NCBI GenBank assembly: GCA_964485275.1
Contig: CAZAIZ010000001.1
Coordinates: forward strand, 1 to 31,009
Source of the DNA: an uncultured Pedosphaera sp.
GTDB taxonomy: Bacteria > Verrucomicrobiota > Verrucomicrobiia > Limisphaerales > UBA1100
Length of the DNA stretch: 31,009 nt
Direction of reading: 5' to 3'
The position numbers and the translations under genes were made by a program. The notes under the pieces were generated by a model. The model saw only the letters and a list, made by a program, of their open reading frames with translations, searched no databases and was not told where the DNA came from. Position 1 is the first letter of the stretch, and each line of letters starts with the position of its first letter. Below, one piece after another: positions 1 through 3,950 of the stretch.

Positions 1-87
1 GCAGCAACAGACGACGCAGCAACAGACGACGCAGCAACAGACGACGCAGCAACAGACAACGCAGCAACAGACAACGCAGCAACAGAC
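1..87 (+). repeat. 15-bp tandem repeat GCAGCAACAGAC(G/A)AC, ~5.8 visible copies, encoding (QQQTT)n; truncated by window start
   Basis: Units read directly at 1-15, 16-30, 31-45, 46-60, 61-75 and a partial unit at 76-87; in frame with the ORF ending at 322. Confidence 0.95.
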
Positions 88-322
88 CAATCAGCCGCCA
101 ACCATGCGTCCGAATAGATTTCCTGCGCGGCCTCAGCAGCAGCAAGTGGGTACTCGTATTCAAGGTCGCGGCTCAGCCATTTTCCTAAGAAGACATCTTA
201 ATCCTAAGACCGGCAAGGTTGAGGTTATTCAAAATGGAGTGATTAGCCGTAGTGGATATCTAAATCTTCCGGGCAATAAACTGAATCGCCGCCAAGCCCT
301 GCGCAATTACCGTTACCGATGA
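2..322 (+). CDS. 5'-truncated hypothetical protein: Gln/Thr-rich linker plus basic C-terminal module shared with the next gene
   Basis: Frame is open from base 2 (QQQTT repeats) through the track ORF 104..322. C-terminus LRR..N..G.VE...G.LNL...RRQALRNYR matches ORF 319..1017. Confidence 0.75.
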   Translation, partial: QQQTTQQQTTQQQTTQQQTTQQQTTQQQTNQPPTMRPNRFPARPQQQQVGTRIQGRGSAIFLRRHLNPKTGKVEVIQNGVISRSGYLNLPGNKLNRRQALRNYRYR

Positions 323-1017
323 ATAAAATACGGGCCATCCTGATTTTGGCGTTTTACCTGGGAGAGCTATGTACGCACGCCCAGCAACAACCAACCCCGA
401 CAAATCTAAGCGGTCACGCGCGGCATTTACGGGTGGCCACCAACATCAACAAGACCTTCATTGGAACAGTGACTGGCGCTACTAGTGGTGGAACCGTCTG
501 GGGAACGGACATCTATACAGATGATTCCCATGTGGGAATGGCCGCGGTTCATGCCGGAATGGTAAACGTGGGACAAACAAAGCAGGTCGTAATCACTATT
601 CTAGCGGGTCAAAGTACCTACCAAGGATCTTCCAGAAATGGAATTGTCTCTTCTAGTTATTCTACCTGGAGTGGAAGTTATTCCTTTGTTGGTGGCGGGC
701 AGCAGACTCAGAACCAGACTCAGAACCAGACTCAGACTCAGACTCAGAACCAGACTCAGAACCCACCACGGCAGCAAAATCAGTCTATGTTCCCGGGGCC
801 ACAGCAGCAGAGTGCCGGCATAGGCAGCCGGATCCAGATGGGTAACCGGGGGCAGACAGGCAGATCAACCCTCATTCTGCGAAGGCGTTACAATGCGCGT
901 CGTGGGCGGGTGGAAATCGTCAAGTACGGTATTTTCAGCCAAACCGGCTTCCTGAATCTACAAAACTCCAGTCTCCAAACCCGCCGCCAAGCCCTGCGCA
1001 ATTACCGCAGCCGGTAA
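319..1017 (+). CDS. Secreted LCCL-domain protein with QTQN linker and basic C-terminal module
   Basis: Signal-peptide-like N-terminus (MNKIRAILILAFYLGELCTHA); LCCL signature VWGTDIYTDDS..AAVHAG..Y.GS.RNG..S..Y..W.GS; ATGA overlap with the upstream stop. Confidence 0.85.
   Translation: MNKIRAILILAFYLGELCTHAQQQPTPTNLSGHARHLRVATNINKTFIGTVTGATSGGTVWGTDIYTDDSHVGMAAVHAGMVNVGQTKQVVITILAGQSTYQGSSRNGIVSSSYSTWSGSYSFVGGGQQTQNQTQNQTQTQTQNQTQNPPRQQNQSMFPGPQQQSAGIGSRIQMGNRGQTGRSTLILRRRYNARRGRVEIVKYGIFSQTGFLNLQNSSLQTRRQALRNYRSR
703..762 (+). repeat. CAGACTCAGAAC / CAGACT tandem repeat encoding a QTQN/QT linker
   Basis: Read directly from the sequence. Confidence 0.9.
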
Positions 1018-1112: not shown

Positions 1113-1613
1113 ATGCTGCTGCATTTCACCCGGGATGGACAGGCCTTCGGTCCTTACCCCATTGAAGAGGCACGCGAATACCTCAAGCGTGGGGAGATTC
1201 TACCCACTGACCAGGCCTGGTATGAGGGATGCGCCAACTGGATGCCGGTAACACAGGTGCCGGGCATGATTGGGGCACCCGGTGCCGATGCGCCGCCCCC
1301 TCCACCCCCTCCTCCGCCACCCCCCCCTTCGGCGGTTCCGGCGGCCCCGGTGGTGTTGGCCACCTACAACAGTACCAATATTAAGTTTAATAAAAAATTT
1401 ATTGAGACGGAGCTCGGGCGGTTTATGAAACTTAATCCCGATGGCTTTACTGAGCAGCTCTTCATGCGGACGCGCAATGGGGATTTTCTTTTGTATCGCA
1501 TTGCCAAGACCGAGGGGGATCACTGTATCCTGCAGGTGGATGTGGACGGGGTGCGTAAGGATAAACGGATGGATTATTTTAATATTACAGAGATTGAAGT
1601 ACGTCAGCGCTAG
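1113..1613 (+). CDS. GYF_2 (DUF4339) domain protein with 12-Pro linker and unassigned C-terminal domain
   Basis: N-terminal DGQAFGPY..EE....L..G.I...D.AW.EG..NW.P pattern is typical of GYF_2; Pro12 at 1293-1328. Confidence 0.8.
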   Translation: MLLHFTRDGQAFGPYPIEEAREYLKRGEILPTDQAWYEGCANWMPVTQVPGMIGAPGADAPPPPPPPPPPPPSAVPAAPVVLATYNSTNIKFNKKFIETELGRFMKLNPDGFTEQLFMRTRNGDFLLYRIAKTEGDHCILQVDVDGVRKDKRMDYFNITEIEVRQR

Positions 1614-2094
1614 TCTTGGGCTTCTGGCTCTATCTTTGTTGACCGGTTGTGTTGCCTCAACCGAGGTTTATACCGCCTCCTATTCACAGCAGGAGTTGAC
1701 CCGGTATCAGGACCTGGCAGATGAGGTGCATGAAAGGGTGAATGTCTACCGGATGACTCTAGGGCTAAACAAGCTGCGGTTGGACCCACGAATTAGTCAG
1801 GTGGCTCAAAGGTACAGTAATAAAATGGCACGCACCGAAAGCTTCAGCCACGTTGGATATAAAAGACGGGCTAGGGCGGTTGGCCGATTTCTTCCCTACC
1901 GGACCGTCTCGGAAAATCTGGCACGAAACTGGGGTCACACAGATCCCGTAGTCATAGCCGTGAATTCCTGGCTTAACAGTTCCTCTCACCGTGGAGCCAT
2001 TGAGGATGGCCGGTATTTGAAGACAGGCATCGGGGTGGCCAAGTCCTCAAAGGGCAGATATTACTTTACCCAGATTTTTGTGCTACCTCGCTAG
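1594..2094 (+). CDS. CAP/SCP-domain lipoprotein
   Basis: CAP motifs: VN.YR..GL..L, FSH, VSENLA, WLNSSSHR.AI, TGIGV, YYFTQIF. TTG at 1594 gives a signal peptide with lipobox LLTG-C; the track start at 1441 is probably too long. Confidence 0.8.
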   Translation: MKYVSASLGLLALSLLTGCVASTEVYTASYSQQELTRYQDLADEVHERVNVYRMTLGLNKLRLDPRISQVAQRYSNKMARTESFSHVGYKRRARAVGRFLPYRTVSENLARNWGHTDPVVIAVNSWLNSSSHRGAIEDGRYLKTGIGVAKSSKGRYYFTQIFVLPR

Positions 2095-3096: not shown

Positions 3097-3179
3097 GGAC
3101 AGGGAACCTCAGGGCACAAACCCTGCCTTGTCAAAGCGTTTTACGTTTGCGCAGCAGGCCTGCTGGTGTACAGAAAGGC

Positions 3180-3950
3180 ATGCAATTGATTTCCAAAATA
3201 GTAGTCGTGGCAGTGTTATGCATTGCAGGGGCGAGGGCTGGAGCCGCGGAGTGGGTTTCGATCTTTAACGGGAAGGATTTGAAAGGCTGGACACCCAAGA
3301 TAAAGGGTCAAAAGGTCGGTGAAAACTTCAAGAACACTTTTCGCGTGGAGAACGGCCTGTTGAAGGTGGGTTACTCAGGCTACAAGGCGTTCGCAGAGCA
3401 ATTCGGCCATATCTTTTACAAAGCAAAAGTGTCACATTACCGCGTGGCAGTCGAATACCGGTTTGTTGGGGAGCAGCTAACCGGTGGCCCAGGGTGGGCC
3501 TGGCGCAATAGCGGTATCATGCTGCATTGTCAGGATCCCAAGACGATGCGAGTGGACCAGGATTTTCCCGTCTCAATCGAAGTGCAGTTGCTGGGCGGCA
3601 AGGAGAAGGGCAAGCGCACCACAGCCAACCTTTGTACGCCCGGAACCAACGTGGTGATGGATGGGGAGTTGCAGACCCGGCATTGTTTCAGCAGTAAATC
3701 CAAAACCTTTCGGGGAGATCAGTGGGTGAGGGTGGAGGTTGAAGTTCGTGGAGGTGAAGTGATTAAACATTTCGTCAATGGAATGGAGGTGATGAGTTAC
3801 TCCAAGCCTCAATATGATCCGCGCGATGAAGATGCCAAGAAACTTGTTGAGGAAGGCAATCTGTCGCTGAAAGAAGGTTACATCTCCCTGCAGTCCGAAA
3901 GTCATCCGGTGGAATACCGGAAAGTGGAGTTGATGCTGCTGAAAAAATAA
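3180..3950 (+). CDS. Secreted DUF1080 (3-keto-disaccharide hydrolase-like) protein
   Basis: IFNGKDLKGW, FRVENG, NSGIMLH, EVQLL, GYISLQSE..PVEYR motifs; signal peptide; ATG 3180 follows AGAAAGG. Confidence 0.9.
   Translation: MQLISKIVVVAVLCIAGARAGAAEWVSIFNGKDLKGWTPKIKGQKVGENFKNTFRVENGLLKVGYSGYKAFAEQFGHIFYKAKVSHYRVAVEYRFVGEQLTGGPGWAWRNSGIMLHCQDPKTMRVDQDFPVSIEVQLLGGKEKGKRTTANLCTPGTNVVMDGELQTRHCFSSKSKTFRGDQWVRVEVEVRGGEVIKHFVNGMEVMSYSKPQYDPRDEDAKKLVEEGNLSLKEGYISLQSESHPVEYRKVELMLLKK

Follow-up and report, generated by a model that had tools for sequence, protein, structure and literature searches.

A sequence-novel polybasic C-terminal module on a clade-restricted family of predicted secreted proteins in uncultured Pedosphaera

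The two overlapping genes at the start of a contig of an uncultured Pedosphaera sp. are part of an undescribed, clade-restricted paralogous family of small proteins of ~190-325 amino acids, which are predicted to be Sec-exported. The members are laid out as a signal peptide, one variable beta-rich or lectin-like passenger, usually a Gln-rich linker, and a C-terminal mini-domain of ~48 amino acids, here called the tail, which matches no described family and is novel in sequence. The tail may serve as a non-covalent, polyanion-binding anchor or tether of secreted lectin-like proteins, a reading that we favor tentatively over the others that are discussed with the evidence that bears on them.

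Results

Two tandem genes at the start of the window

The window, i.e., the whole stretch of 31,009 nucleotides that was analyzed, is the start of contig C1 (G000:C1:1-31009) of G000, a MAG of 2.2 Mb in 460 contigs that is 79% complete. The original prediction for its first kilobase was that two tandem genes, overlapping by ATGA, share a C-terminal module behind different repeat linkers, and that the second gene encodes a signal peptide and an LCCL domain. The features assigned to this region are as follows.

2..322, + strand: gene 1, 3' part (106 codons plus TGA), an open reading frame that is open at its 5' end
2..103, + strand: Gln/Thr-rich linker of gene 1, (QQQTT)5 QQQTN QPPT, encoded by a 15-nt tandem repeat
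119..319, + strand: extended C-terminal module of gene 1, FPARPQQQQVGTRIQGRG plus the core (tail alignment, BLASTP)
173..319, + strand: polybasic core of gene 1, SAIFLRRHLNPKTGKVEVIQNGVISRSGYLNLPGNKLNRRQALRNYRYR, net charge +10
287..312, + strand: 26-nt stretch, copy 1, coding RRQALRNY(R), an exact match to 982-1007
319..1017, + strand: gene 2, complete, 232 aa, its ATG overlapping the stop codon of gene 1
319..381, + strand: signal-peptide-like N-terminus of gene 2, MNKIRAILILAFYLGELCTHA, with QQQ following the predicted cut (hydrophobicity heuristic and sequence inspection)
481..678, + strand: LCCL domain of gene 2, PF03815, residues 55-120 (Pfam scan, E 1.4e-15)
691..789, + strand: Gln/Thr/Asn-rich linker of gene 2, (QTQN)n, encoded by a 12-nt tandem repeat with its period at 691-786
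790..1014, + strand: extended C-terminal module of gene 2, FPGPQQQSAGIGSRIQ... plus the core (tail alignment, BLASTP)
865..1014, + strand: polybasic core of gene 2, STLILRRRYNARRGRVEIVKYGIFSQTGFLNLQNSSLQTRRQALRNYRSR, net charge +11, predicted to form a beta-hairpin, a short strand, and a C-terminal helix
982..1007, + strand: 26-nt stretch, copy 2, an exact match to 287-312

The module common to both products was recovered by BLASTP with 37/77 identical residues (E 1e-11), and the ATGA overlap between the open reading frames 2..322 and 319..1017 as well as the different linkers, (QQQTT)n in gene 1 and (QTQN)n in gene 2, were found as predicted. The same holds for the N-terminal part of gene 2, in which a signal-peptide-like segment precedes a PF03815 match that scores 57.6 bits against a Pfam cut-off of 22.6; the M-x-K-I-R-x-I-L-I-L type of N-terminus is seen again in paralogs. 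Both tandem open reading frames are present, but gene 1 is cut by the contig end, and its N-terminus and signal peptide are not visible. The assembly cuts this gene inside its (QQQTT)n-coding repeat, the 15-nt period of which spans positions 1-105, and seawater-run assemblies likewise break at Gln-repeat regions. None of the other G000 contigs, when searched for the QQQTT repeat that should lead to the N-terminus of gene 1, carries this repeat, and the upstream neighbor predicted from synteny is absent from the G000 assembly. One contig from a seawater RNA library covers positions 571-736 at ~98% identity, which is not proof of transcription.

The identity of the two 26-nt copies was exact, as had been noted originally. 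All of the RRQALRNY codons (8/8) are the same in genes 1 and 2, most other residues common to both tails differ in codon, and the probability of the RRQALRNY codon match is ~1e-4 when codons are drawn independently from the codon usage of this genome. In a comparison of 12 tails drawn from several genomes, variation at synonymous sites was close to that expected, with the exception of an invariant AAT-TAC, and on this basis a family-wide DNA element underlying RRQxLRNYR, such as a recombination site or an RNA motif, was rejected. Because of this near-expected variation the 26-nt identity, which is limited to the tandem pair and a few paralogs, is best read as probable local gene conversion and not as a DNA signal. 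A loose end at position 287 was encountered in a seawater assembly, where a further paralog joins exactly at the 26-nt stretch.

The tail defines a family of paralogs

A tblastn search with the tails against the whole MAG detected two more genes, on contigs C457 (235 aa) and C236 (265 aa), giving a total of four copies. In both products an MGKIR-x-ILIL signal peptide leads into a middle part of unrelated sequence, after which come a Gln-rich stretch and a tail that ends in RRQVLRNYRYR-stop. The 3' flanks of these two genes share the sequence AAAGAGTTTC.GGTTTGC.TTG (L002 past 843; L003 past 1442; L004), suggesting that the duplication unit reaches past the stop codon. Two further G000 contigs, C98 (- strand, 598..1) and C18 (- strand, 248..1), end in Gln-rich coding repeats, (QQQGG)n and (RQQQ)n, respectively, after signal peptides, and may represent additional members that were split by the assembly; the true tail copy number in G000 is probably >4. 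Seven tail copies are present in the congeneric MAG G011 ("uncultured Pedosphaera sp."). A jelly-roll-type member on its contig C110 is split over two overlapping frames (L025 753-1382 and 1303-1689, + strand), representing either a frameshifted pseudogene or a sequencing error.

A profile built from the four G000 tails was searched against 1.84 billion representative proteins, clustered at 50% identity, and matched only 41 clusters at E <=1e-3, including 26 at E <=1e-10. With these 41 metagenome clusters next to the four copies in G000 and the seven in its congener, the module is not confined to one duplicated pair; such confinement was one of the outcomes that the original prediction had named as refuting it. 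The module occurs once per protein. It had been expected always at the extreme C-terminus, and it does end all full-length matches but two, P0022 and P0038, in which a short extension of degenerate appearance follows. The fragment P0040 is cut within the module, and P0042 (3562 aa, with Ala/Gly/Thr-rich repeats) was discarded as a spurious match that covers only 24 profile positions. Signal peptides were called by a hydrophobicity heuristic and sequence inspection; all members with a complete N-terminus show a basic n-region and a hydrophobic h-region, in agreement with the proposed occurrence of the tail on signal-peptide proteins, and the members without a signal peptide are fragments from short contigs.

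Sequence and predicted structure of the tail

The conserved core of ~48 amino acids reads TTLRxRFNPKTGxVEVxKNGxISRxGFLNxxxxxLNRRQxLRNYR(xR), and carries a net charge of +9 to +14 over 47-49 residues, with acidic residues numbering <=3. No variation was seen at the second R of RRQ and the R of LRN, both in the terminal helix, or at the Gly of the first turn, and hardly any at the single Glu, two more Gly residues, and the final Tyr-Arg. Such a pattern is in keeping with a folded unit that bears a specific ligand surface. The proteins stop 0-3 residues past the YR motif. The FPGPQQQ..G.RIQ motif upstream of the core, which was included in the original consensus, is restricted to one subfamily. 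Members of another subfamily terminate in LRGYR and are often without the Gln-rich linker. The lack of a hydrophobic transmembrane segment, noted originally, was confirmed by a maximum 15-residue hydropathy of <=1.2.

The tail falls outside the known Pfam domains, as anticipated; no Pfam or NCBIfam model matched the tail when 29 full-length members and the tails were scanned, and no relatives of the tail were found in PHROGs and PADLOC. Foldseek comparison of the tail model, which is of low confidence, with PDB and the ESM Atlas gave nothing meaningful (best E 1.7, TM <=0.43), an ESM Atlas feature search with the tail gave no usable match, and PDB sequence profile matches to ribosomal S3 and Kre29 (best E 0.09) were judged to be noise. 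A literature search for a Verrucomicrobiota C-terminal signal of this type found nothing relevant.

AlphaFold2 modeling of the tail alone, with 37 sequences, yielded a beta-hairpin and a short strand, followed by a terminal helix of 12 residues, at a mean pLDDT of only 57.8. The hairpin and terminal helix appeared again in the full-length model of another member, at pLDDT <50 with the passenger at 70-89; given this low confidence for the tail, a folded domain is not established. Prediction of a tail-core homodimer (two copies) gave a score of 0.01, which counts neither for nor against a dimer.

Low confidence of the monomer could also mean that the tail folds only upon partner binding, as would be the case for a protein-protein docking module (dockerin-like, on an acidic scaffold) or an oligomerization module (foldon-like, raising the avidity of the lectins), and a specific interface would be in keeping with the invariant Arg, Tyr, and Glu. 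The architecture is that of dockerin-bearing cellulosome proteins, since type I and II dockerins are, like the tail, small and clade-restricted C-terminal modules that secreted proteins of varied domain content carry behind a flexible linker. Dockerins are, however, acidic, consist of duplicated Ca-binding EF-hand-like segments, and bind cohesins, whereas the tail is polybasic, has no Ca-binding motif or other dockerin features, and matches nothing in Pfam, and neither a cohesin-like partner nor any repeated partner protein was identified. Moreover, a net charge of >+9 per copy speaks against self-association without a polyanion, and a docking or oligomerization role is considered quite unlikely.

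A scan for acidic secreted partner candidates returned one protein on G000 contig C31 (5694-6686, + strand), with a net charge of -48 over 331 aa, DDPF(I/M)EEK-type repeats, and a glutaredoxin-like C-terminus; nothing ties this protein to the family.

Variable passengers and conserved tails

The N-terminal domains vary among the members, as the original prediction required. Besides the LCCL domain of gene 2 they include a Laminin_G_3 (LamG) domain in P0005 and, in the largest subfamily, a ConA-like jelly roll (Foldseek E ~2e-5 to legume lectins, TM 0.35-0.5); the remaining passengers are beta-rich and without family assignment. The likeness to LCCL proteins (PF03815) concerns the passenger of gene 2 only and not the tail, other members having other passengers. 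All recognizable passengers are binding-type folds. P0014 consists of a signal peptide, a linker, and the tail, and has no passenger.

Of the 17 related pairs that were compared, 16 show higher conservation in the tail than in the passenger (e.g., 70% versus 31%, and 81% versus 39%), the exception being a near-identical pair (tail 96%, passenger 97%). In P0037 and P0043 the tails are identical (47/47) and the bodies share 34% identity. The contrast in conservation indicates strong purifying selection on the tail, along with a putative exchange of tails or passengers between paralogs. In P0028, a leucine-rich-repeat-type N-terminus is apparently fused into the middle of the tail. The P0037/P0043 pair, P0028, and P0014 may be signs of recombination or cassette exchange, or may in part be assembly chimeras.

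Distribution and the syntenic site

The tail is present in 2 of 31 genomes of the family, and was not found in the 13 other genomes of the genus and 16 more of the family, nor in 400 other Verrucomicrobiota genomes (379 of high quality). Members occur in seawater and other aquatic metagenomes. The contigs that carry tail genes are 1-3 kb long or end at these genes, and as Gln repeats and shared tail sequence break assemblies, MAGs may lose tail genes; the distribution is a MAG-based pattern that involves short contigs, so that little weight can be given to absences outside the syntenic site.

At the syntenic site itself, the absence of a tail gene from G003, G004, G008, and G007 is solid, these genomes having a small secreted gene, GYF_2, CAP, and MutY on one contig. 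In G000, genes 1 and 2 are followed by GYF_2, CAP, and MutY, and G011 has a tail gene after its ortholog of the small secreted gene. G003 and G011 are equally close to G000, the RpoB of G003 being 94% identical to its G000 counterpart. The occurrence of the same syntenic block with and without tail genes identifies these genes as an insertion or a deletion at the site, and the family appears to be of very recent, narrow origin.

Neighboring genes

Tail genes are dispersed or in tandem. Their neighbors over approximately ten loci encode rhodanese, SNase, thioredoxin-like, SIMPL, peptidase M19, ECF sigma factor, phage integrase, and GYF_2 proteins. With regard to the co-distributed transporter or protease genes that a dedicated sorting pathway would entail, no transporter, protease, or outer-membrane protein recurred in these approximately ten contexts.

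GYF_2 (PF14237) is encoded at 1113-1613 of the window (+ strand), at L002 9-275 (+ strand), and at L015 5123-5449 (- strand), adjoining tail genes at two G000 loci and lying within 4 kb at one G011 locus; G000 contains 28 GYF_2 matches in 2.2 Mb. A functional partnership was dismissed, as the same site holds GYF_2 in relatives without tail genes, and the adjacency at the window locus reflects the insertion site. The listed open reading frame of a CAP/SCP protein (PF00188; window 1441-2094, + strand) overlaps the GYF_2 gene, and its real start is probably located further downstream, before a lipoprotein-like LLALSLLTGC segment; the CAP gene is found in the same position in four relatives. A secreted, ConA-like DUF1080/3-keto-disaccharide hydrolase (PF06439, E 3e-37) is encoded near the family genes at window 3147-3950 (+ strand). 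A secreted SNase homologue (PF00565) is located beside tail genes in both carriers (L003 177-971 and L023 1225-1869, both + strand), and has a Gln/Gly-rich linker of its own as well as a basic C-terminal extension that differs from the tail.

One could imagine that the tail is the active part of these proteins, as a cationic element directed at other cells or at polymers that is, for example, membrane-active, condenses DNA, or cross-links a matrix, with the N-terminal domains only targeting it. The extreme positive charge, the strongest conservation within the proteins, the tail-only member, and the secreted SNase gene near tail genes in both carriers would agree with such a role. The tail lacks, however, the amphipathic or hydrophobic face that is typical of membrane-active peptides, no immunity-like neighbor or processing site was recognized, and the idea is purely speculative; we regard it as very unlikely.

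Comparison with C-terminal sorting signals

The original prediction was that the tail is a candidate sorting or anchoring signal. A true C-terminal sorting or secretion signal would be read by dedicated machinery after Sec export, upon which the passenger would be moved across or attached to the outer membrane and the tail possibly removed, as with T9SS CTDs. The single-copy and nearly always terminal position of the tail, the signal peptides, the flexible linker, the interchangeable cargo, and the presence of several paralogs per genome are in favor of such a signal, and the ending of the proteins 0-3 residues past YR would place a free C-terminus at a fixed distance, which could aid recognition.

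The T9SS CTDs (Por_Secre_tail, TIGR04183/PF18962) resemble the tail in their location at the extreme C-terminus of signal-peptide proteins, their varied passengers, and their occurrence in several copies per genome. In Bacteroidota, these CTDs are weakly conserved Ig-like beta-sandwiches of 70-100 amino acids, which PorU removes and which are found together with SprA/PorV, in contrast to the tail of ~48 amino acids that is strongly basic, highly conserved, and predicted to form a hairpin and a helix. The TIGR04183 and PF18962 models gave no match in the 29 full-length members or the tails, and Verrucomicrobiota are not known to have T9SS-type sorting. The PEP-CTERM, GlyGly-CTERM, and LPXTG signals share with the tail a C-terminal position on secreted proteins, lineage specificity, and a many-to-one logic. 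The signals for exosortase, rhombosortase, and sortase are tripartite, a short motif being followed by a hydrophobic transmembrane helix and then a basic cluster, whereas the tail has no hydrophobic segment and no NCBIfam match.

Searches for the corresponding machinery in five genomes of the genus, G000, G011, G003, G004, and G008 (79-95% complete), gave no match to exosortase (PF09721) and none to SprA (TIGR04189), the latter a weak result, as the model was also silent in the control set and G000 is only 79% complete. No candidate machinery was found beside the members in the approximately ten contexts. The tail has neither the tripartite organization of motif, transmembrane segment, and basic end nor a beta-sandwich CTD; it is, moreover, the most conserved part of the proteins, and a tail-only member exists. 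With the tail in 2/31 family genomes and 0/400 other genomes of the phylum, a private machinery would need to be equally recent. The sorting-signal proposal has been borne out in its architecture, but found no support beyond that, with no machinery found, a narrow clade, and the tail as the best-conserved part, and we consider a true sorting signal rather unlikely. That the tail is the recognition tag of a new export or surface-attachment pathway, private to the clade of marine Pedosphaeraceae-like Verrucomicrobiota, is likewise deemed unlikely.

Discussion

The best-conserved tail with its invariant Arg residues and extreme charge, the tail-only P0014, the searches for machinery that found none, and the narrow origin together fit a domain that acts on the mature protein better than an export tag that is recognized and removed, and a pure sorting tag without cargo, as P0014 would be, would be odd. 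For the tentatively preferred anchor, the tail would function as an independent domain that stays on the mature protein, and its Arg/Lys-rich surface would bind non-covalently to a polyanion in the envelope or matrix of the cell. Candidates for this ligand are LPS or the head groups of anionic lipids, peptidoglycan, polysaccharides that are acidic or sulfated, and extracellular DNA. The linker would let the lectin-like passenger reach outward from the attachment point, such that the tail would be a tether and not an export tag that is removed.

The tail can be likened to the GW modules of Listeria InlB and Ami and to SLH and LysM domains, which are basic or ligand-binding and hold varied secreted domains non-covalently on an anionic envelope polymer, although they have no sequence or fold similarity to the tail. 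These modules are larger, usually form tandem repeats, and have been described mostly in Gram-positive walls. LysM, SLH, and GW anchors are often arranged in tandem or located at either end of the protein, and the single-copy, C-terminal placement of the tail, which is more typical of sorting signals, counts against an anchor.

C-terminal modules on unrelated secreted proteins have repeatedly opened up envelope biology, as illustrated by sortases, exosortases, T9SS, and cellulosomes. The very narrow distribution of the tail limits its general importance. Within its clade, the tail identifies lectin-like proteins of uncultured marine Verrucomicrobiota that form a rapidly shuffling set, and marine members of this phylum have been linked to polysaccharide turnover. 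Should the tail be a sorting tag, it would point to a new pathway. If it is an anchor, it would show how these cells display binding proteins, and would in addition constitute a compact (~48 aa) candidate display or affinity tag for polyanions.
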